A DNA stretch of 64,000 nt from Mobula hypostoma (taxonomy: Eukaryota). Numbering within the stretch: the stretch's first letter is position 1; each line of letters starts with the position of its first letter. The position numbers and the translations under genes were made by a program. The stretch lies in the NCBI RefSeq assembly GCF_963921235.1, contig NC_086097.1, forward strand, positions 166,596,001-166,660,000. Reading direction: 5' to 3'. Shown piece by piece: positions 1,180 through 60,613 of the stretch. Under the pieces are notes generated by a model. It was not told the origin of the DNA and ran no database searches. It saw nothing but the letters and a program-made list of their open reading frames with translations.

Positions 1180-1359
1180 ATGAGGGTCTGCGGAAGGAGT
1201 GGTGGATTGGTCGTGGTGGAGCGCTTGGTGTTTGCCGCCGACGCCGGGGACTCCGACCCATGCTCCAGGGCGGTGTTGTTCGCAGGACAGCTGCCAAATC
1301 TGCACAAACTTGCCTGGAACCAAGTGAAGGGGAAGCTGGAGCCCCGGGTGACCCAGGAG
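1180..1359 (+). CDS. NPEPL1: NPEPL1-like M17 aminopeptidase, coding exon 1 (start codon inferred)
   Basis: MRVCGRSGGLVVVERLVFAADAGDSDPCSRAVLFAGQLPNLHKLAWNQVKGKLEPRVTQE resembles the NPEPL1 N-terminus (AGDSDP..R...GQL..LH...W..V.GKL.PRVT.E); ATG in gcggcgATG context; donor GAG|GTAGCG. Confidence 0.85.
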
Positions 1360-4719: not shown

Positions 4720-4905
4720 GTCTGGCAGACAGCACTGAGAACTTTGAATCCAAATCCTACAGCTACTTGCTCTCTTTGGCTCAATTATGCTCTAGTGGCA
4801 GCACTCCGGTCCAAAGTCAGTCGTCACAACAGTCCATCTTCAGCTCACTTTCTCACACGATTGATTAGTAGTTCCTTGACTCGAAGAACCAACCAGTGCA
4901 TTGTG
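4720..4905 (+). CDS. NPEPL1: NPEPL1-like exon 2
   Basis: ttcag|...|gtgagt; 186 bp; VWQTALRTLNPNPTATCSLWLNYALVAALRSKVSRHNSPSSAHFLTRLISSSLTRRTNQCIV. Confidence 0.93.
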
Positions 4906-6912: not shown

Positions 6913-7083
6913 TTGGTCTGTGAATATGCAGAGGTTTTTGCCTTAGCATGTGCACTAACAAGAGCGTTTCCTTTGTTCACTCGACGCACTGGAATGCATG
7001 AACATGAAGACAAGATCACTGTTACTGTAGAGTTTATTCTAGTGGGAGAAAATACCAAGCCACTCTGTGAATCTGCACTTGAA
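6913..7083 (+). CDS. NPEPL1: NPEPL1-like exon 3
   Basis: tttcag|...|gtaagt; 171 bp; LVCEYAEVFALACALTRAFPLFTRRT...VTVEFILVG...ESALE. Confidence 0.93.
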
Positions 7084-8354: not shown

Positions 8355-8444
8355 TGTTTGTTAAATGCTGCTGAAGGCATCCGATTAGCAGCTCGTATTG
8401 TGGATATGCCATGCTGTGAGATGAATACCGATGACTTCCTTGAG
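8355..8444 (+). CDS. NPEPL1: NPEPL1-like exon 4
   Basis: catag|...|gtgagc; 90 bp; CLLNAAEGIRLAARIVDMPCCEMNTDDFLE. Confidence 0.93.
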
Positions 8445-9153: not shown

Positions 9154-11355
9154 GATTAGATTAGATTCAGATTAGATTCAACTTTATTGTCATTGTGCCG
9201 AGTACAGATAAAAAGCCAATGAAATGCAGTTAGCATCTGACCAGAGATGCAAAGAATAGTGTTATTTACAAAATAACTGCGAATAAAAAGTAAGTGCTAC
9301 AGCACACAAATATAAAAGTACTGAGACAGTACAATATGGATACAATACTGCTTAGCGCTGTGATGAGAGGTTCAGCAGTGTCATAGCCTCGGGGAAGAAG
9401 CTCTTCCTGTGCCTGCTGGTGCGGGAGCGGAGGCTCCTGTAGCACCTACCGGATGGGAGGAGAGTAAAAAGTCCATGGTTAGGGTGAGATGCATCCTTGA
9501 TAATGCTTTTCACCCTGCCCAGGCAGCATTTATGGTAGAAGTTCTCAATGGTGGGCGATTGGGTGCCGATAATCCGCTGGGCAGTTTTCACCACACACTG
9601 GAGTGCTTTGTGGTCCGATACGGGACAATTGCCACACCACACTGAGATGCAGTTGGTGAGTCTGCTCTCAATGGTACAGCGGTAAAAGTCCATTAGTATC
9701 CTGGGACAGAGGTGAGCTGTCTTCATGCTCCACAGGAAATAAAGGCGCTGTTGTGCCTTTTTGATCAGGATGGAGGAGTTCAGGGACCAGGTGAGATCCT
9801 CGGAAATGTGGACACCAAGGAATTTGAAGCTTGATAAACGCTCCACTGCAGCTCCGTTGATGTAGATTGGGACGTGAGTGTGGCTCCTAGCATGACTGAA
9901 GTCCACAATGATCTCCTTGGTCTTCTGGGTGTTAAGAGCCAGGTTGTTGTTGCCACACCACGCGGCCAGGCGCTGGACCTTGTCCCTGTAGGCCGTCTCG
10001 TCACCCCCTCTGATCAGGCCAACCCTGTGGTGTTGTCTGCGAACTTGATTATGGAGTTAGAACCATGTACAGGAACGCAGTCATAGGTGAAAAGGGAGTA
10101 CAGAAGAGGGCTCAGCACACAGCCTTGAGGCACGCCGGTGTTCAGGGTGAGAGTGGAGGAGGAGAGGTTGTCTAATTTAACTGATTGGGGTCTGTTAGTC
10201 AGAAAGTCCAAGGTCCAATTGCAGAGGGATGATCTGATACCAAGCTGGCGAAGTTTGGCGATCAGCTTGGAGGGGATCACAGTATTGAATGCCGAACTAA
10301 AGTCAATGAACAGCATTCTGACGTAAGAGTTGGGGCTGTGCAGGTGGGTCAGGGCAGAGTGAAGTGCTGTGGAGATAGCGTCCTCTGTTGACCTGTTGGT
10401 GCAATAGGCAAATTGACTGGGGTCCAGGGTAGTGGGCAGACAGGATTTCAGATGTGATAGAACTAGTCTCTCAAAGCACTTTGCAATGATGGGGGTGAGT
10501 GCAACTGGACAGAAGTCATTCAGGCCTGTGGCAGTGGAATGCTTCGGCATTGGCACGATGGTGACGAGCTTGAAGCTTGTGGGGACAACTGCCTGGGCCA
10601 GGGACAGATTAAAAATGTCCGTGAAGACCCCGGCCAACTACCCTGCACAGACTCTGAGCACACGGCCAGGTATTCCATCCGGACCAGCTGCCTTCCATAC
10701 ATTCACCCTGCTCAGGGTGGCACAAACATCGGAGGTGGAAAGTGAGAGAGGCAGTTCACCAGGTGGGAGATCCGCTATGAGGGTGACCTCCTTGATCTCT
10801 CGGTCAAAGCGAGCGTAGAAGTAATTGAGCTTATCAGGGAGGGAAGCAGAGCTGGCAGGGGGCACAGTACTAGGTGGTTTGAAGTCTGTAATGACCTGTA
10901 TGTCATGCCACATGTGCTGGGGGTCCGAAGAGTTGAAATGCTCCTCGATTCTCTGTTTGTATATGTGTTTAACCTGAGAGATTCCCCTCCTCAGGTTGGC
11001 CCTAGCTGAGCTGTAAGCCTCCTGGTCTCCAGACCTCAAAGCTGAATCTCAGGCTTTGAGCAGGAGGTGAACTTCTCTGTTCATCCATGGTTTCTGATTG
11101 GGGAAAACTTTTATTTGTTTTTGTGATGTCACTATCTACACACTTGTTGGTGTGCTCAGGGACAGAGTTGGTATATAAATCAATGTTGAGCTGAGAGTCT
11201 GTGGTGGCATGGGCAGCAAACGCGCTCCAGTCTGTGTGCTGGAATTGGTGCTGAGGAGCAGAGTCAGCACCCTCCAGCCAGATCTTAATAGTCTTCATTG
11301 TGGCTTTCAAAAGTTTAATGACCGGGCTATACTTGGGAAGCAGAAACAATGAAAG
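9154..11355 (-). mobile_element. 5'-truncated Rex1/Babar-like LINE (RT plus C-terminal domain), few disruptions
   Basis: ORF pieces [70 protein letters not shown]; 3' AATAAA followed by (TCTAA/TCTGAA)n tail. Confidence 0.9.
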
Positions 11356-11632
11356 ATGGATGGTCTGAAGGGTATAGAGAACTGTAACTGAATGGATGAG
11401 GCCTGGAGCAGATCATATTGAATGGTGAGTGGCCAGGTGACCTAATCTTCCTATTTTCTTGTGTTCTTAGGCTATTCCAAAGCACTATGATTAATTAGGA
11501 ACTTTTGTAATGTAGGAAGCAAGTTAGTGGTATAGTCAAACTCATCACACACAACATTAAGATAAAAAGCATATTGTATCATAGAATTATAGAATGCCTA
11601 CAGCACAGTAGGAGGCCATTTGGCCCATTGTG

Positions 11633-29280: not shown

Positions 29281-29362
29281 GAAATCAACCTTGTTGGATC
29301 TGAACTGGGTATTATTCCCACAATTATCCGTGGGGAGGAACTAAATCACAAGGGATTTGGAG
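29281..29362 (+). CDS. NPEPL1: NPEPL1-like exon 5
   Basis: aatag|...|gtaata; 82 bp; EINLVGSELGIIPTIIRGEELNHKGFG(G). Confidence 0.92.
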
Positions 29363-31877: not shown

Positions 31878-32020
31878 GCATTTATGGAGTTGGAAAAGCT
31901 GCAGTGAACCCTCCTGCTCTTGCAATACTTAGTCATACACCAGAGGATGCTACGCAAACTATAGCCTGGGTCGGCAAGGGTATCGTTTATGATACCGGTG
32001 GTCTCAGCATTAAATCAAAG
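31878..32020 (+). CDS. NPEPL1: NPEPL1-like exon 6 (metal-binding GKG..YD motif, catalytic Lys)
   Basis: ttcag|...|gtgatg; 143 bp, phase matches exon 5; IYGVGKAAVNPPALAILSHTPEDATQTIAWVGKGIVYDTGGLSIKSK. Confidence 0.95.
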
Positions 32021-33813: not shown

Positions 33814-33891
33814 TCACAGATGACAGGGATGAAGAGAGATTGTGGAGGAGCTGCTGCTGTCCTTGGAGCCTTCCGAGCAGCAGTGAAACAG
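33814..33891 (+). CDS. NPEPL1: NPEPL1-like exon 7
   Basis: tgtag|...|gtaggc; 78 bp; SQMTGMKRDCGGAAAVLGAFRAAVKQ (M17 MKxDxxG motif). Confidence 0.95.
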
Positions 33892-35603: not shown

Positions 35604-36161
35604 TGCTGATCAGTCAATCCTCTATCCACGCTAGTATCTTTCCTGTTATACTTGGTGACAAGGCTTTTATCTTGCTGATCAGTCAATCCTCTATCCACGC
35701 TAGTATCTTTCCTGTTATACTGGGTGACAAGGCTTTTATCTTGCTGATCAGTCAATCCTCTATCCACGCTAGTATCTTTCCTGTTATACTGGGTGACAAG
35801 GCTTTTATCTTGCTGATCAGTCAATCCTCTATCCACGCTAGTATCTTTCCTGTTATACTGGGTGACAAGGCTTTTATCTTGCTGATCAGTCAATCCTCTA
35901 TCCACGCTAGTATCTTTCCTGTTATACTGGGTGACAAGGCTTTTATCTTGCTGATCAGTCAATCCTCTATCCACGCTAGTATCTTTCCTGTTATACTGGG
36001 TGACAAGGCTTTTATCTTGCTGATCAGTCAATCCTCTATCCACGCTAGTATCTTTCCTGTTATACTGGGTGACAAGGCTTTTATCTTGCTGATCAGTCAA
36101 TCCTCTATCCACGCTAGTATCTTTCCTGTTATACTTGGTGACAAGGCTTTTATCTTGCTGA
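35604..36161. repeat. 69-bp x 8 tandem repeat derived from CR1 RT sequence
   Basis: Unit TGCTGATCAGTCAATCCTCTATCCACGCTAGTATCTTTCCTGTTATACT(G/T)GGTGACAAGGCTTTTATCT repeated 8 times (552 bp), bounded by TGCTGA. Confidence 0.97.
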
Positions 36162-37157
36162 GCAGCTTCACCTGTGGTACTTTGTTAAAGACCTTCTGAA
36201 AATCCGTGTGCACAAGGCCCTTCGATTCTCCTTTGTCTATCCTGCTTGCTATTTCCTCAAAGAATTCCAGCATATTTTTTACCATGCTCATGGTCTGTTC
36301 TTTATCAAATTACGGTATTCCTTTGCACTGTTGTAACTATACGTTATAATTATGTGGTTTTTGTCAGTTTTTCAGTCGGTTTGTCATGTGTTTCTGTGAT
36401 GTCATTCTGGAGAAATGTATCATTTCTTAATGCACGCATTATTAAATGACAATAAAAGAGGACTACGTGTCCTCATAATCTAATCTAATATTTGTCAGAC
36501 AAGATTTTCCTTTAAGTTAACCATGTCAACTTTTGCCTATTTTGTCATGTAGTCAAAGTACCTTGAAACTACGTACTCAACAGTCGACTCCAACATCTTC
36601 TCAACCACTGAGGTCAGGCTAACTGGCCTACAATTTCCTTTCTTCTGCTCCCCTCCCTTCTTGAAAAGTGGCATGACATTTGCAATTTTCCAGTCATCTG
36701 GAACCTGCCAGAATCTAGTGATTCTTGAAAGATCATTACTAATGTCTCCACAATCTCTTCAGCTACCTCTTTCAGAACCCTGGGGTGTGATCGATCTGAT
36801 CCAGGTGACTTATTTACCTTCAGCCCTTGCAGCTCCCCAAAAACCTTTTCCTTAATAACAGCAACTGCACTCTCCTCTGCCCCCCTCGAACTTCTGGCAT
36901 ACTGCCGGTGTCATCCACTGTGAAGACTGAGGCAAAATGAGGTAAAATACTTATTCAGTTTGTCCGCCATTTCCTTGTCCCCAATTACTGCATCTCCAAT
37001 GTTATTTTGCAACAGCCTGATATCTATTCTCACATCTCTTTTATTCTTGATTTATCTGAAAAACTGTTTGGTATCCTCTTGATATTATTGGCTAGCTTAC
37101 CATCATATTTCATCTTTTCCCCTATTATGGCCTTTTTAGTTGCCTTTTGTTAGTTTT

Positions 37158-39615
37158 TAGAAACATAGAAACATAGAAACATAGAAAATAGGTGCAGGAG
37201 TAGGCCATTCGGCCCTTCGAGCCTGCACCGCCATTTATTATGATCATGGCTGATCATCCAACTCAGAACCCCGCCCCAGCCTTCCCTCCATACCCCCTGA
37301 CCCCTGTAGCCACAAGGGCCACATCTAACTCCCTCTTAAACATAGCCAATGAACTGGCCTCAACAGTTTGCTGTGGCAGAGAATTCCACAGATTCACCAC
37401 TCTCTGTGTGAAGAAGTTTTTCCTAATCTCGGTCCTAAAAGGCTTCCCCTCTATCCTCAAACTGTGACCCCTCGTTCTGGACTTCCCCAACATCGGGAAC
37501 AATCTTCCTGCATCTAGCCTGTCCAATCTCTTTAGGATCTTATACGTTTCAATCAGATCCCCCCTCAATCTTCTAAATTCCAATGAGTACAAGCCCAGTT
37601 CATCCAGTCTTTCTTCATATGAAAGTCCTGCCATCCAGGAATCAATCTGGTGAACCTTCTTTGTACTCCCTCTATGGCAAAGATGTCTTTCCTCAGATTA
37701 GGGGACCAAAACTGCACACAATACTCCAGGTGTGGTCTCACCACGGCCTTGTACAACTGCAGTAGTACCTCCCTGCTCCTGTACTCGAATCCTCTCGCTA
37801 TAAATGCCAGCATACCATTCGCCTTTTTCACCGCCTGCTGTACCTGCATGCCCACTTTCAATGACTGGTGTATAATGACACCCAGGTCTCGTTGCACCTC
37901 CCCTTTTCCTAATCGGCCACCATTCAGATAATAATCTGTTTTCCTATTTTTGCCACCAAAGTGGATAACTTCACATTTATCCACATTAAATTGCATCTGC
38001 CATGAGTTTGCCCACTCACCCAACCTATCCAAGTCACCCTGCATCCTCTTAGCATCCTCCTCACTGCTAACACTGCCACCCAGCTTCGTGTCATCCGCAA
38101 ACTTGGAGATGCTGCATTTAATTCCCTCATCCAAGTCATTAATATATATTGTAAACAACTGGGGTCCCAGCACTGAGCCTTGCGGTACCCCACTAGTCAC
38201 CGCCTGCCATTCTGAAAAGGTCCCGTTTATTCCCACTCCCTGCCTCCTACCTGCTAACCAATTCTCCACCCACACCAATACCTTACCTCCAATACCGTGT
38301 GCTTTAAGTTTGCACACTAATCTCCTGTGTGGGACCTTGTCAAAAGCCCTCTGAAAATCCAAATACACCACATCCACTGGTTCTCCCCTATCCACTCTAC
38401 TAGTTACATCCTCAAAAAATTCTATGAGATTCGTCAGACATGATTTTCCTTTCACAAATCCATGCTGACTTTGTCCGATCATTTCACCGCTTTCCAAATG
38501 TGCTGTTATCACATCCTTGATAACTGACTCCAGCAGTTTCCCCACCCCCGACGTTAGGCTAACCGGTCTATAATTCCCCGGTTTCTCTCTCCCTCCTTTT
38601 TTAAAAAGTGGGGTTACATTAGCCACCCTCCAATCCTCAGGAACTAGTCCAGAATCTAACGAGTTTTGAAAAATTATCACTAATGCATCCACTATTTCTT
38701 GGGCTACTTCCTTAAGCACTCTAGGATGCAGACCATCTGGCCCTGGGGATTTATCTGCCTTCAATCCCTTCAATTTACCTAACACCACTTCCCTACTAAC
38801 ATGTATTTCACTCAGTTCCTCCATCTCACTGGACCCTCTGTCCCTTACTATTTCTGGAAGATTATTTATGTCCTCCTTAGTGAAGACAGAACCAAAGTAA
38901 TTATTCAATTGGTCTGCCATGTCCTTGCTCCCCATAATCAATGCACCTGTTTCTGTCTGCAGGGGACCTACATTTGTCTTTACTAGTCTTTTCCTTTTTA
39001 CATATCTATAAAAGCTTTTACTGTCCGTTTTTATGTTCTCTGCCAGTTTTCTCTCATAATCTTTTTTCCCCTTCCTAATTAAGCCCTTTGTCCTCCTCTG
39101 CTGAACTCTGAATTTCTCCCAGTCCTCAGGTAAGCCACTTTCTCTGGCTAATTTGTATGCTACTTCTTTGGAATTGATACTATCCCTAATTTCTTTTGTC
39201 AGCCACGGGTGCACTACCTTCCTTGATTTATTCTTTTGCCAAACTGGGATGAACAATTGTTGTAGTTCATCCATGCAACCTTTAAATGCTTGCCATTGCA
39301 TATCCACCGTCAATCCTTTAAGTGTCATTTGCCAGTCTATCTTAGCTAATTCACGTCTCATACCTTCAAAGTTACCCCTCTTTTAGTTCAGAACCTTTGT
39401 TTCTGAATTAACTATGTCACTCTCCATATTAATGAAGAATTCCACCATATTATGGTCACTCTTACCCAAGGGGCCTCTCACGACAAGATCGCTAATTAAC
39501 CCTTCCTCATTGCTCAAAACCCAGTCCAGAATAGCCTGCTCTCCAGTTGGTTCCTCGACATGTTGGTTCAAAAAACCATCCCGCATACATTCCAAGAAAT
39601 CCTCTTCCTCAGCAC
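37158..39615 (-). mobile_element. Young 5'-truncated CR1 LINE with a nearly intact ORF2 RT region
   Basis: 598-aa open frame 39361-37565 with [42 protein letters not shown]; frameshifts near 39380 and 37635; (TTTCTATG)n tail. Confidence 0.95.
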
Positions 39616-44976: not shown

Positions 44977-45077
44977 GGTTTTAAAGAAAACTTGCATGCA
45001 TTGTTCTGCTTGGCTGAGAATGCAGTAGGAGCTGAAGCCACAAGACCTGATGACATTCACCAACTGTATTCTGGAAA
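44977..45077 (+). CDS. NPEPL1: NPEPL1-like exon 8
   Basis: actag|...|gtgagt; 101 bp; GFKENLHALFCLAENAVGAEATRPDDIHQLYSG(K). Confidence 0.95.
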
Positions 45078-45494
45078 GTGAGTTAGTGGATGTCTGCTGC
45101 TACATTTTTGGTCTTCCAGTATCTTGGTGTACTATGTATGAGCAAAATGCAGAATATAAACAAATAGGACGGAGACAATTTGTTGCAACTTTAGAAGGTC
45201 AATAGATGCATTTTGTTCTCCAAGTACCTTTGAGCAGAAATTAGGATTTGACTGTAATGTCATTTGTAGTACTTGGGTTGTATGTTCAGCCTGGATAATT
45301 TTCTCTGATTTTCTCTTAGCAATTTATCATGGTACATTTTTTAGAGGCCAGGAATACTTTATAAATCCTAATTTTACTGATGATTGCAGATTCATACACT
45401 GAATGGGTTATAAAACAAAAAAATGTTGCTTCAATTTTTTGCAAATCAGATCTGATTGTGTTTTACTTTTAAAAAAAACACATTTACTCAATAG

Positions 45495-45618
45495 AACTGT
45501 TGAGATCAATAACACAGATGCAGAAGGTTCTCTGGTTTTGGCTGATGGAGTATCCTATGCGTGTAAAGATCTCAAAGCAGACATCATAGTAGATATTGCA
45601 ACTTCAGCTGGAGCTCAG
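45495..45618 (+). CDS. NPEPL1: NPEPL1-like exon 9 (NTDAEG signature)
   Basis: aatag|...|gtaagt; 124 bp, phase matches exon 8; [41 protein letters not shown]. Confidence 0.95.
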
Positions 45619-46750: not shown

Positions 46751-46927
46751 GGTATTGTGACTGGGAAGTACCATGGTGGATTGCTTACCAATAATGAGGA
46801 GTGGGAACAGGCCTGTGTTAAAGCCGGACAAAACAGTGGAGATCTTGTGCACCCATTGGTTTACTGCCCAGAACTCCACTTCAGTGAATTTACTTCAACT
46901 GTGGCAGATATGAAAAATTTTGCGTCT
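46751..46927 (+). CDS. NPEPL1: NPEPL1-like exon 10
   Basis: actag|...|gtaagt; 177 bp; GIVTGKYHGGLLTNNEEWEQACVKAGQNSGDLVHPLVYCPELHFSEFTSTVADMKNFAS. Confidence 0.95.
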
Positions 46928-49161: not shown

Positions 49162-49272
49162 GATCATGCCAGTGCTCTGAGCTCGTGTACAGGCTTGTTT
49201 ATTGAAGCACATATTGGCTTTGATTGGCCAGGAGTATGGGTGCACATTGACATGGCTTCTCGAGTTCATTCT
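49162..49272 (+). CDS. NPEPL1: NPEPL1-like exon 11
   Basis: tgtag|...|gtaagt; 111 bp; DHASALSSCTGLFIEAHIGFDWPGVWVHIDMASRVHS. Confidence 0.94.
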
Positions 49273-50122: not shown

Positions 50123-50284
50123 GGAGCTCGGGCTACAGGCTATGGGGTAGCACTACTTTTAGCATTGTTTGGTCATGCAACAGATAATGTATTGTTGAAC
50201 ATCATTTCACCAAATGGTGTTAGCTTTACCACAGAAGTTGGTAATTCGATGGAAAATTGCTTCAAAAAGAGAAGACTGATATGA
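50123..50284 (+). CDS. NPEPL1: NPEPL1-like exon 12 (terminal, stop TGA)
   Basis: atcag|GARATGYGVALLLALFGHATDNVLLNIISPNG...CFKKRRLI*; summed CDS 1605 bp = 534 aa + stop, frame open across all 12 exons. Confidence 0.94.
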   Translation, partial: GARATGYGVALLLALFGHATDNVLLNIISPNGVSFTTEVGNSMENCFKKRRLI

Positions 50285-54356: not shown

Positions 54357-54609
54357 TCACTTCGTCTTTTCGCGTGTCCATTTGATCATAGTTTCTGGTG
54401 ATCTATATAAGAAGATGAGCTTAGCATACAGATCCTCCTCCAGTTCTAACTCTCCAGTCTCTCGAACCAGGAAGATATCTGTGCATAGCTTCAAGATTCG
54501 GTCCACGTTTGGTAGCTCCTCAAACATGATGGAGTGAGAGATCCCACTGAAGAACTCGCGCACAAACTTTCCAATGACTAGCACAACTGATGCATAGAGA
54601 CCCATAATG
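54357..54609 (-). CDS. PIEZO2: PIEZO2 mechanosensitive channel, terminal coding exon (inner helix + C-terminal domain)
   Basis: ttttcag|C then IMGLYASVVLVIGKFVREFFSGISHSIMFEELPNVDRILKLCTDIFLVRETGELELEEDLYAKLIFLYRSPETMIKWTREKTK*; essentially the PIEZO2 C-terminus as I recall it. Confidence 0.92.
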
Positions 54610-55599
54610 CTGAAAAACAATGAAAACCATTAGAATACATCAGGAAATTCAGATTTATTCTTTAAAATTGGGGATGAAAAGTGGAGCTTCCAAGTTTAAG
54701 TTATACATGGCTTCCTAAATCTGCAACATAGTGATGGAGAATGCATGCTCATTATGAGCTATATCCCATAATAATAATCTATGTCTGAAACGAGGTTCTC
54801 TGGTCTAGTTCCATTGTATATGCAAACAGGTATGCAAATATTTCATCAATGCTTTAAACATAATATTGTTCCCCTTCACCTACCCGCAGTGGTAGCCACC
54901 ACAACTTACACTTAGTGAAGACCTGGCATATAACATGCCAAGTTCTTCAACTGATGTGCTGTCACTTGCATCCAATCAAACTGTATTACTGGTGTAGATG
55001 AAGGAATCCAATGTGTTACTGTTAAATTTAGTGGCAGTACACAGAGGTAGAAAAATGAGCTGGGAATTGCTAAGTTTGCTAAGGGATATAGTTGCATTAA
55101 CTGTATAAAATTTAGCTGATGCTGCGTAATGTGAGATTTCCATTTTGATAAAAACACTAGAAAACCAGCAAATTATTTAAATACAGATGGAACATAGTAC
55201 TTTACTGTACCAAACAATCTGGGTGTTATTGTACATAAAACATAGAAGCATGTAGGTGCAGCAAAAGATTACGAAAGCAAATGGAATATTGTCATTTAGT
55301 CCAAGATGGTTTGAGTTTAATAAGTACAGGGTGTCAATGAGATCACATCTGGAGTGCAGTGAACAATAATACTCTCCTTATTTAAAGAGGAATATCCTTG
55401 GGTAGTTCAAAGAAGGTTAACCAGGATGTTTCACATCAAGGAACTGTCTAATGAAAACATATTAAACAAAAAATATTGGACCAATGTTTATGGATGTTTA
55501 GAAGAATGAGAAGTGAACTTTTTGAAAATTTATAATATTCTAAGTAGATTGCCTGACAGTATCTGGCAATAGCAAAATGTACTCTTGTTTCTTCTCTGT

Positions 55600-56365: not shown

Positions 56366-59300
56366 ACATTCGCTTGCATGACATTCTCAAGTGGGAGGGT
56401 GATCAGCCAGATGTCGTGGTGCACATCGGTACCAATGACATAGCAAGGAAGAGTGAAGAGGTCCTGGACAGTGAGTATAGAGAGCTTGGTAGGAAGTTGA
56501 AAAGCAGGACCTCGAGGGTGGTAATCTCAGGATTGCTACCTGTGCCACATGCCAGTAAGGGTAGGAATAGGATGCTCTGGAGGAGGAACAAGTGGCTGAG
56601 GAACTGGTGTAGGGGGCAGGGTTTCAGATTTCAGGATCATTGGGACCTCTTCTGGAGCAGGTGGGACCTGTACAAGAGAGACGGGTTACACTTGAACCAC
56701 AAGGGGACCAATATCCTTTCAGGGAGGTTTGTTAGTGCTATTGGGGAGGCTTTAAACTAGATTTGCAGGGGGATGGGAACCAGAGTGCCAGAGCTGACAG
56801 TGTGGCTGGGGTGAAAATAAATGATGTTGAAAGTTTAAACAAATCCACTGATAGAAAGGTTGTGAGTGGTGGTAAAAATCTTCTGAGGTGTATATATTTC
56901 AATGCTAGGAGTATTGCGGGGAAGGCGGACGAGTTGAGTGCGTGGATTGACACGTGGAATTATGACATTATAGCAATTAGTGAAACTAGGCTACAGGAGG
57001 GACAGGACTGGCAGCTTAATATTCCAGGGTTCCGATGTTTCAGATGTGATCGAGGCAGAGGAATGAAAGGTGGGGGGGTAGCATTGCTTGTCAGGAAAAA
57101 TGTTACAGCAGTGCTCAGGCAGGACAGATTAGAGGGCTTGTCTACTGAGTCCTTACGGGTGGAGCTGAGGAAAAGGAAAGGTATGGCCACGTTAGTGGGG
57201 TTGTATTATAGACCACCCAATAGTCAGCGAGAATTGGAGGAGCAAATCAGCAGAGAGATAGCAGGCAACTGCAGGAAACATAAAGTTGTGGTGGTAGGGG
57301 ATTTTAATTTTCCATATATTGATTGGGACTCCCATACTGTTAGGGGTCTAGATGGTTTAGAGTTTGTAAAATATGTTCAGGAAAGTTTTCTAAATCAATA
57401 TATAGAGGTACCAACTAGGGGGGATGCAATATTGAATCTCCTGTTAGGAAGCGAGTTAGGACAAGTGACAGAAGTGTGTGTAGGGGAACACTTTGGTTCC
57501 AGTGATCGTAACAGCATTAGTTTCAACTTGATCATGGAGAAGGATAGATCTGGTCTTAGGGTTGAGGTTCTGAACTGGAAGAAGGCCAAATTTGAAGAAA
57601 TGAGAAAGGATCTAAAAAGCGTGGATTGGGACAGGTTGCTGTCTGGCAAGGATGTGATCGGTAAGTGGGAAGCCTTCAAAGAAGAAATTTTGAGAGTGCA
57701 GAGCTTGTATGTTCTTGTCAGGATTAAAGGCAAAGTGAATAGGAATAAGGAACCTTGGTTCTCAAGGGATATTGCAACTCTGATAAAGAAGAAGAGAAAG
57801 TTGTATGATATGTATAGGAAACGGAGTAAATAAGGTGCTTGAGTATAAAAAGTGCAAGAAAGTACTTAAGAAATAAATCAGGAGGGCTAAAAGAAGACAT
57901 GAGGTTGCCTTGGCAGTCAAAGTGAAGGATAATCCAAAGAGCATTTACAGGTATATTAAGAGTAAAAGAATTGTAAGGGATAAAATTGGTCCTCTTGAAG
58001 ATCAGAGTGGTCGGCTATGTGCAGAACTAAAAGAAATGGGGGAGATCTTAAATGGGTTTTTTGCGTCTGTATTTACTAAGGAAACTTATGAAGTCTATGG
58101 AATTAAGGGAAACAAGTAGTGAGATCATGGAAACTGTACAGGTCGAAAAGGAGGAGGTGCTTGCTATCTTGAGGCAAATTAAAGTGGATAAATCCTCAGG
58201 ACCTGACAGGGTGTTCCCTCGGACCTTGAAGGAGACAAGTGTTGAAATTGCAGAAGTCCTGGCAGATATATTTTAAATGTCGCTGTCTACGGGTGAGGTG
58301 CCGGAGGATTGGAGAGTGGCTCATGTTGTTCCGTTGTTTAAAAAAGGATCGAAAAGTAATCCGGGAAATTATAGGCCGGTAAATTTGACGTCGGTAGTGG
58401 GTAAGTTATTGGAGGGAGTACTAAGAGACAGAATCTACAAGCATTTGGATAGACAGGGACTCATTAGGGAGAGTCAACATGGCTTTGTGTGTGGTAGGTC
58501 ATGTTTGACCAATCTATTGGAGTTTTTCAAGGAGGTTACCAGGAAAGTGGATGAAGGGAAGGCAGTGGATGTTGTCTACATGGACTTCAGTAAGGCCTTT
58601 GACAAGGTCCCGCATGGGAGGTTAGTTAGGAAAATTCAGTTGCTAGGTGTACATGGAGAGGTGGTAAATTGGATTAGACATTGGCTCAATGGAAGAAGCC
58701 AAAGAGTAGTAGTAGAGAATTGCTTCTCAGAGTGGAGGCCTGTTACTAGTGGCGTGCCACAAGGATCAGTGCTGGATCCATTGTTATTTGTCATCTATAT
58801 CAATGATCTAGATGATAATTGTGGTAAATTGGATCAGCAAATTTGCTGATGATACTAAAATTGGAGGTGTAGTGGACAATGAGGAAGGTTTTCAGAGCCT
58901 GCAGAGGGACTTGGACCAGCTGGAAAAATTGGCTAAAAAATGGCAGATGGAGTTTAATACAGACAAGTGTAAGGTATTGCACTTCAGAAGGACAAACCAA
59001 GGTAGAACATACAGGGTGAATGGTAAGGCACTGAGGAGTGCAGTAGAACAGAGGGATCTGGGAATACAGATACAAAATTCCCTAAGAGTGGCGTCACAGG
59101 TAGATAGGGTCGTAAAGAGAGCTTTCGGTACATTGTCCTTTATTAATCAAAGTATTGAGTATAAGAGCTGGAATGTTATGATGAGGTTGTATAAGGCATT
59201 GGTGAGGCTGAATCTGGAGTATTATGTTCAGTTTTGGTCACCAAATTACAGGAAGGATATTAATAAGGTTGAAAGAGTGCAGAGAAGGTTTATGAGGATG

Positions 59301-59766
59301 TTGCCGGGACTAGAGAAACTCAGTTACAGAGAAGGGTTGAATAGGTTAGGACATTATTCCTTGGAGCGTAGAAGAATGAGGGGAGATTTGATAGAGGTAT
59401 GTAAAATTATGATGGGTATAGATAGAGTGAATGCAAGCAGGCTTTTTCCACTGAGGCAAGGGGAGAAAAAAAAACAGAGGACGTGGATTAAGGGTGAGGG
59501 GGGAAAAATTTAAAGGGAACATTAGGGGGGGCTTCCTCACACAGAGAGTGGTGGGAGTATGGAATGAGCTGCCAGACGAGGTGGTAAATGTGGGTTCTTT
59601 TTTAACATTTAAGAATAAGTTGGACAGATAAATGGATGGGAGGTGTATGGAGGGATATGGTCCGTGTGCATGTCAGTGGGACTACGCAGAAAATGGTTCG
59701 ACACAGCCAAGAAGGGCCAAAAGGCCTATTTCTGTGCTGTAGTTTTTCTATAGTTTTCTATGGTTT
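56366..59766 (+). mobile_element. CR1 LINE with ORF1 C-terminus (SGNH esterase-like) and full-length but disrupted ORF2 (APE + RT), in the last PIEZO2 intron
   Basis: ORF1 VVVHIGTNDI...DGLHLN; ORF2 [42 protein letters not shown]; several stops and frameshifts; tail ttttctatagttttctatggtttc. Confidence 0.93.
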
Positions 59767-60420
59767 CAGAGGGAGGTGATGGGCAGGTAAGGAGAGAAGG
59801 TATGAGAGGGAAGCAGAAATAGTGAGGGAGTGGGGCAATAATAAGAAGTTTGAGAAATCAATCCCTCCCTCTGGTGCTCCTCCCCCTTCCCTTCCCTTCC
59901 ATGGTCTTCTGTCCTCTCCTTTCAGATTGCTTATCTTTTATCAGAATTTATTGCCTCTGCAACGTGGATCTTTGTTTTCACATTAAATCCACCTTACACT
60001 GAAATGGCAAAGAACTTTAAGACCTGTCTTAGAGTTCATTCTGAGTGCAGGGTAATCTTAGAAACATTCATGTGCAATTAAGGCATCCAATATTTTAATT
60101 GGTTCAAAAGCTGTACTGGTGAGATGATCTTGGAAACCTGCAATAATCCAAGTATCAAAGTGGAGGAAAGTGCAAACTTCCTCTATCATTTTATACACCA
60201 GTAGAGTAATAACGATGTGTGTAAGAATTTATGAAAAAAACAATTACAATATTTAAAAGACATTTGGACAGATATATGGAGATAGGAAAGGTTTAGAGGA
60301 ATATATGCCAAATACAGGAAGGCACTTTGGTTGGCATGGACTAATTGGGCCATAGGGCCCGTTTCTGTACTGTATAACTCTAATGTAAAGTAAATCAAAG
60401 AATTGAATTTGTTGTCTTAC

Positions 60421-60613
60421 CCATAGCCAGCCAGGAAGCCAAGACTTGGAGGACTAACTTTATCACTGAATACAATAATTTCTAAACTTTCCTTTTTATC
60501 ATTTTTGAGAAACTTGTTGGTCTGATTAACAATCCACCATTCCTGTATGAGTCCTGTAACATTGCTTTTTTCCTGAACCAGCATTAAATTAAGTTCACAG
60601 TAGTCATCACCAT
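60421..60613 (-). CDS. PIEZO2: PIEZO2 penultimate coding exon (end of cap domain)
   Basis: ccaacag|...GG|gtaaga; 193 bp; ...QEWWIVNQT...SLEIIVFSDKVSPPSLGFLAGYG; split codon GG|C joins the terminal exon in frame. Confidence 0.92.

Follow-up and report, generated by a model that had tools for sequence, protein, structure and literature searches.

The gene described here is a second, ancient paralogue of NPEPL1 in the ray Mobula hypostoma, distinct from the NPEPL1 orthologue that the same genome carries elsewhere. We refer to it and to its clade as NPEPL1b, a name coined here. It lies in a stretch of 64,000 nucleotides, called the window hereafter (contig NC_086097.1, positions 166,596,001 to 166,660,000 of the forward strand), and positions are counted from the first letter of this window. 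On balance, we lean towards the reading that NPEPL1b of myliobatiform rays is a folded pseudo-peptidase whose retention reflects a role other than catalysis, and the residues it has lost suggest that it likely has little or no cutting activity.

NPEPL1b comprises 12 exons between 1180 and 50284 on the + strand, all 11 introns being bounded by GT..AG. The joined exons form a 1605-nt frame encoding 534 aa without internal stop, and the translation equals, letter for letter, P0125, a Mobula hypostoma protein listed under the name 'probable aminopeptidase NPEPL1'. An earlier note on this DNA had described an intact NPEPL1-type M17 gene with a fully open 12-exon frame; this description stands, whereas the paralogue status of the gene and the canonical second copy had been missed. 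Exons were placed by tblastn and translation, supplemented by splice sites for exon 1, alignment for exon 2 and spliced joints for exons 8, 10 and 12. Exon 1 (1180..1359) opens with the ATG and encodes residues 1-60; in chondrichthyan b proteins its start (window 1180-1220) encodes an N-terminal extension that is rich in Gly, about 5-12 residues long and missing in canonical copies. Exon 2 (4720..4905; residues 61-122) carries D75A and P90R, common to four rays, and is followed by exons 3 (6913..7083), 4 (8355..8444) and 5 (29281..29362). Exon 6 (31878..32020) contains the metal ligands K270 (31976-31978) and D275 (31991-31993) as well as the catalytic K282 (32012-32014), all intact, and exon 7 (33814..33891) contains T285S and P288T, again common to the four rays, as well as the metal ligand D293 (33838-33840). 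Exon 8 (44977..45077) is connected via the spliced joint 45077-45495 to exon 9 (45495..45618), where D352 and E354 are intact. Exon 10 (46751..46927) precedes exon 11 (49162..49272), which harbors His446 (49165-49167), N448S, A454T and P478R (49261-49263), and exon 12 (50123..50284) runs through the stop codon, the protein ending in KKRRLI. Downstream, two 3' exons of PIEZO2 on the - strand (54369..54647, a coding exon with 79/79 residues identical to PIEZO2 in the alignment, and 60420-60608) face NPEPL1b tail to tail.

The canonical NPEPL1 of this genome, with NTDAEGR and TLTG, is located on a different contig (G000:C2) and matches protein P0236 in 12 segments. STX16 lies directly upstream of it, VAPB about 130 kb further, and a Piezo gene is positioned tail to tail, which is the gene order given for NPEPL1 in the available part of PMC13228305. 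This third Piezo gene (G000:C2:226333264-226340334 (+), L043/L047) occupies the piezo3 position of that source, again as far as its accessible text goes. The window gene does not share this setting, known for human NPEPL1 at 20q13, beside STX16, VAPB and Piezo3/GNAS. Besides PIEZO2, its surroundings include VAPA and an APCDD-family gene, situated upstream at about 710 kb and about 610 kb, respectively, and on the downstream side a G-alpha gene at a distance of about 1.3 Mb. The canonical-NPEPL1 block and the PIEZO2/VAPA block are named as sisters in the same excerpt of PMC13228305, and from these paired blocks we infer that NPEPL1a and NPEPL1b originated in vertebrate genome duplication, with synteny support coming from the Mobula hypostoma genome alone. 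The APCDD family is represented by one locus among the matches listed (G000:C1:165953556-165985118); APCDD1L would be expected beside the C2 block, and no APCDD-family match was found there among these matches. As to further M17 genes of the genome, C5 holds an intact one of LAP3-like type and C22 a divergent fourth one (G000:C22:130163093-130170749; L012, L016), whose NTDAEGR is intact. No intronless genomic copy occurred among the three matches of the own-genome search.

Phylogenetic placement agrees with gene order. In a FastTree analysis of 64 sequences, to which the second copy of gar was added afterwards, the window protein falls into a clade with the second copies of skates, sharks, coelacanth, bichirs, sturgeons, paddlefish, bowfin and gar (support 0.90-0.94). 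Canonical copies of tetrapods, teleosts and chondrichthyans form a separate clade that includes P0236 and excludes the window protein, and lampreys group with this canonical (a) clade. S442F, present in 28/28 NPEPL1b proteins, is a mark of the b clade. Tetrapods and teleosts contributed no b copy to the set of proteins used for the tree, and the best 120 hits of the protein searches contained no b copy of tetrapods, teleosts, Callorhinchus, Pristis or Narcine, although a copies of the latter three genera were retrieved. Likewise, the best 120 of 2843 hits included no further b fragments at high identity among shorter proteins.

Within exon 9, two changes had drawn attention to the gene, and both read as claimed: a TCT codon (Ser356; 45529..45531) follows NTDAEG in place of the bicarbonate-binding Arg, and T380-S381-A382-G383 (ACT TCA GCT GGA; 45601..45612) replaces TLTG. 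The protein consequently departs from the NTDAEGRL signature at Ser356 and from the ATLTG loop, which reads ATSAG. These positions are nearly invariant in the family: in the 150 top-ranking representatives from a 50%-identity library, Arg occupies the R356 column in 143/144 proteins with a residue there, Leu the L381 column in 143/143 and Thr the T382 column in 142/143, while D293 is kept in 147/148 and Arg at position 446 in 113/131. By alignment, S356 corresponds to bovine LAP R336 and E. coli PepA R356, S381 to bovine L360, and the TSAG site to bovine LAP 359-362 and T. brucei LAP-A 401-404; the catalytic lysines correspond as window K282, bovine K262 and PepA K282 (bovine and PepA numbering as given in the accessible part of PMC10649214). 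The counterpart of R446 (His in the window protein) in T. brucei LAP-A is, by alignment, R467, to which the carboxyl group of bestatin binds according to an excerpt of PMC5557676. K282 is present in all 28 b proteins, and the window protein retains every metal ligand and the catalytic Lys (K270, D275, K282, D293, D352 and E354), as the earlier note had stated.

The distribution of the changes across orthologues is restricted. R356S, L381S and T382A occur together in 4/4 myliobatiform proteins (two Mobula, Hypanus and Hemitrygon) and in none of the 4 skate, 13 shark and 7 bony-fish b proteins; skates and 12 of the 13 sharks retain Arg and LTG. Sharing by other chondrichthyans, raised in the earlier note, thus extends to myliobatiform rays and stops short of skates and sharks. 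The four rays further have T285S, P288T and P478R in common, together with loss of R446. S356, S381, A382 and R478 are identical in all four and R478 is also ray-specific, whereas at position 446 Mobula has His and dasyatids have Gln, and positions 443, 445, 448 and 454 likewise vary, T454 being found only in Mobula. Canonical orthologues carry the altered residues in 0/36 cases, ruling out that they are common in NPEPL1 proper. Other segments suspected of having changed fared differently: H446 and R478 are ray-specific, whereas MKNF (S442F, all 28 b proteins) and GARATG (E483A, 21/21 chondrichthyan b proteins) are older features of the b clade and therefore do not belong to the ray change. 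The assertion that the protein still binds metal agrees with the five ligands of the window protein and does not extend to the dasyatid orthologues of Hypanus and Hemitrygon, where D293 is replaced by Gly.

Separate damage to the active site was found in three further lineages, each known from one annotation: horn shark b (P0003) carries D275N, D293E and R356Q, the skate Rhinoraja (P0142) K270M and E354D, and gar K270S, D275N, E354G and T380N. An 11-residue catalytic set is altered in 7/29 b proteins, representing four lineages when the four rays are counted as one event, compared with 0/36 canonical and outgroup proteins. The spotted gar protein (P0396 / P0541) has 13 changes at 80 conserved positions, including three metal ligands, and an unalignable N-terminal part; it may reflect ongoing gene decay or an annotation error.

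For the rays, these changes suggest a stepwise loss of catalysis. Loss of R356 would remove the bicarbonate site, L381S, T382A and P478R would reshape the hydrophobic substrate pocket, and loss of R446 would abolish the grip on the carboxyl end of the substrate; dasyatids would afterwards have lost the metal ligand D293 as well. Peptidase activity would be provided by the canonical copy, whose retention on C2 makes loss of the b active site affordable. The b protein itself would most likely have been kept as a putative subunit with a structural or regulatory part in M17-type hexamers, built either from b alone or together with the active copy. The grounds for lost catalysis would be cumulative: both arginines are gone, the pocket is probably reshaped, the site appears to drift, and the gene was kept in dasyatids despite a lost metal ligand. 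A broader version of this reading, which we put forward tentatively, takes NPEPL1b as a vertebrate ohnologue that may have a conserved non-catalytic job as regulatory or scaffold subunit co-assembling with NPEPL1a, catalysis having been shed independently in myliobatiform rays, a skate, horn shark and gar. If true, vertebrates would have an M17 pseudo-peptidase too, and NPEPL1b would serve as a natural experiment on roles of NPEPL1 beyond peptide cutting.

Selection on the b copy was estimated using introns of sequencing run X9 as neutral yardstick, since X9 shows stingray-type residues; its match to dasyatids is inferred solely from these residues. X9 introns differ from the window at 118/1832 bases (6.4%). 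At this divergence, a neutral gene would have accumulated about 79 replacement changes, about 4 stops and about 10 indels, compared with 22 and 25 differences seen, and no stop, frameshift or indel was found in 4/4 ray b proteins. The resulting ratio of protein change to neutral is about 0.3 for b and about 0.09 for the canonical copy, both being comparisons of living sequences with changes not mapped to branches, and distinct from codon-based dN/dS. Silent to replacement differences in exons amount to 7:6 for X9 (p=0.015) and 9:5 for run X10 (p=0.001), versus about 1:3.3 if neutral, as counted in 40 of 80 difference rows. The two Mobula b proteins differ at 1 residue in 534. The view that the gene is still under selection is borne out by this reduced protein change and the lack of indels.

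Constraint is unevenly distributed along the protein. We defined a near-site set as the 14 ligand-contact residues given in the available portion of PMC5557676, plus or minus three residues, yielding 58 scored positions; the set was chosen after the alignment was seen and follows the sequence instead of 3D distance. Compared with sawshark b, the window protein differs at 9/58 near-site positions and skate b at 1/58 (p=0.016), with similar numbers at conserved positions elsewhere (13/210 and 11/210). Between Mobula and Hemitrygon, 5/58 near-site positions differ, which fits the 8.6 predicted under neutrality (p=0.13), and the 443-448 loop holds four of these, whereas the conserved core differs at 4/210 with 31 expected and so departs from neutrality. 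Positions that vary within the family have changed at 9/199 where neutrality predicts 29, about a third of the neutral rate. In a stricter test confined to 80 positions conserved in at least 85% of the family, the four rays change 6-7, compared with much lower numbers in the 17 other chondrichthyan b proteins (0-3 for the nine with listed values). Clustering of these changes near the site reaches p=0.02-0.05 in dasyatids and gar; for the window protein alone it is not significant (5/34 near the site versus 2/46 elsewhere, p=0.11). Collectively, purifying selection holds the b scaffold and has been released around the active site.

The same data bear on the slow decay of a redundant duplicate that has no specific job, in which catalysis went first, the remaining constraint reflects the cost of a misfolded subunit, and b is heading for the loss seen in other vertebrate lineages. 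Such decay would account for the faster evolution of b compared with a in rays (22/534 versus 7/526, p=0.007) and, by a factor of about two, in sharks, for four lineages harming the active site in four different ways, for the state of the gar protein, and for patchy retention, read from the best 120 hits and thus a floor. It sits poorly with reading frames free of stops, frameshifts and indels in all four rays, with the near identity of the two Mobula proteins, with the slow change of family-variable positions and with the excess of silent differences in X10 and X9. We consider it doubtful as an account of ray NPEPL1b, which we rather take to be a probable pseudo-peptidase with a non-catalytic job.

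The predicted model of the window protein (pLDDT 93.4) resembles C. elegans LAP-1 (2hb6) with a TM of 0.86 and an E of 5e-53, and an intact two-domain M17 fold is thus predicted. An alignment of 132 sequences was used (pLDDT 93); an earlier attempt with 37 close sequences gave pLDDT 55 and was discarded. As the model rests on an alignment of active relatives, it tells nothing about activity. A two-copy complex prediction for residues 172-505 scored 0.29 against a mark of 0.32 and carries no weight in either direction.

Residue chemistry tempers what had been said about individual positions. In E. coli PepA, mutation of the Arg did not lower activity and a bicarbonate-free mechanism was proposed, according to the part of PMC10666288 at hand, whereas the available text of PMC3078892 expects Arg loss to cut activity 10- to 100-fold. 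Both excerpts call the Arg non-essential, so its portrayal as a strictly essential residue was overstated and R356S alone would not prove a pseudo-peptidase. The importance ascribed to TLTG was likewise too strong, since the Thr and Leu ligand contacts in trypanosomatid LAP-A structures are main-chain oxygens (PMC5557676, in the section available); in Plasmodium M17, the Leu at the same motif position as L381 makes an additional packing contact with a hydrophobic group of the inhibitor, as read in an extract of PMC9470162.

These points leave some room for a weak or re-specified peptidase, in which the Mobula metals and K282 would hydrolyse without bicarbonate, and the polar pocket formed by S381, A382 and R478 would take other N-terminal residues, e.g. 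acidic ones. The non-essential Arg is compatible with this, as are the five metal ligands and K282 preserved in both Mobula proteins, and the constancy of S356, S381, A382 and R478 in all four rays is what re-specification would predict too. R478 lies two residues past A476, whose aligned counterpart in bovine LAP, residue 451, we take to be part of the pocket. On the other hand, the two dasyatids lost D293, a ligand otherwise almost universal, which favours lost catalysis over re-specified chemistry, and the differences among rays at 446 and at 443, 445, 448 and 454 imply that no new site is being maintained unchanged. Recombinant S-Lap1 of Drosophila, in which three of the seven catalytic residues are altered, was inactive, as was recombinant S-Lap6 (PMC6388916, from the portion accessible). 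We therefore regard a re-specified peptidase as unlikely, and lost catalysis in a retained fold as the better description of ray NPEPL1b.

Spliced contigs were inspected in 4 of 10 matching sequencing runs; none of these is recorded as RNA, and only spliced joints were used as evidence. In 4/4 runs (4 organisms, 4 studies), contigs join exons 8-9, 9-10 and 11-12 at GT..AG sites. A contig of run X2 shows 0 differences from the window across exons 8, 9 and 10, including 45495-45616, and hence the Ser codon and TSAG sit in a spliced molecule. Artefacts of sequencing or assembly, and a recent pseudogene confined to one individual, are extremely improbable and were ruled out, given the same residues in four species, this identity of the X2 contig over exon 9 and 11/11 canonical splice sites.

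NPEPL1b shares the M17 architecture of NPEPL1 (PF00883 + PF18295), is 70% identical to its own canonical copy (157 differences in 524 columns), and both copies have 12 coding segments, a basic C-terminus and the same database name. It differs by its location in the PIEZO2/APCDD/VAPA block, its own clade, the lack of R356, L381, T382, R446 and P478, and an evolutionary rate about three times higher between the same ray species. The closest solved structures by both sequence and fold are C. elegans LAP-1 and trypanosomatid LAP-A (5ntf, 5nsq, 5nth), with fold TM of 0.86 and about 0.8 and aligning metal ligands and catalytic Lys; unlike ray NPEPL1b, they keep NTDAEGR and TLTG, and T. brucei LAP-A keeps R467, the counterpart of ray H446. 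Bovine lens LAP (LAP3) and E. coli PepA follow the same seven-residue catalytic scheme as the family of the window gene but belong to a distant subfamily; the intact LAP3-like gene on C5 is the ray's own.

M17 proteins moonlight, and dead M17 copies of insects have a structural role in sperm. Like the S-LAPs of Drosophila, NPEPL1b is an M17 duplicate beside an active paralogue, having lost conserved catalytic residues while its frame stayed open under purifying selection. In one S-LAP cluster the same Arg is replaced (Arg413Val) and the catalytic Lys kept, according to the accessible pages of PMC3078892. In contrast to ray NPEPL1b, a single gene from a vertebrate block duplication, the S-LAPs have a separate insect origin, number eight genes, are testis-specific and are structural in sperm mitochondria. 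M17 pseudo-peptidases as such are known; a second vertebrate NPEPL1 appears to be new, as none of the papers listed in searches of the open-access literature dealt with it or with an M17 pseudo-peptidase from a vertebrate.

Both ray copies go by 'probable aminopeptidase NPEPL1' in databases. The a and b copies occur as a pair in one animal, and b is intact in skates and most sharks, so that shark, skate, Mobula and dasyatid b proteins form a graded series by which the input of the Arg, on which PMC10666288 and PMC3078892 disagree in the parts available, of the TLTG loop and of one metal ligand could be measured. Ray NPEPL1b would thus represent a duplicate caught between enzyme and either pseudoenzyme or loss.

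The introns of NPEPL1b and the sequence downstream contain retroelement-type open frames resembling reverse transcriptase and endonuclease at 9352-11412 (-), 37565-39382 (-) and 56736-59513 (+). Within a retroelement-like stretch of intron 7, a 69-bp unit is further repeated 8.1 times in tandem, with 99% identity, at 35604-36165.
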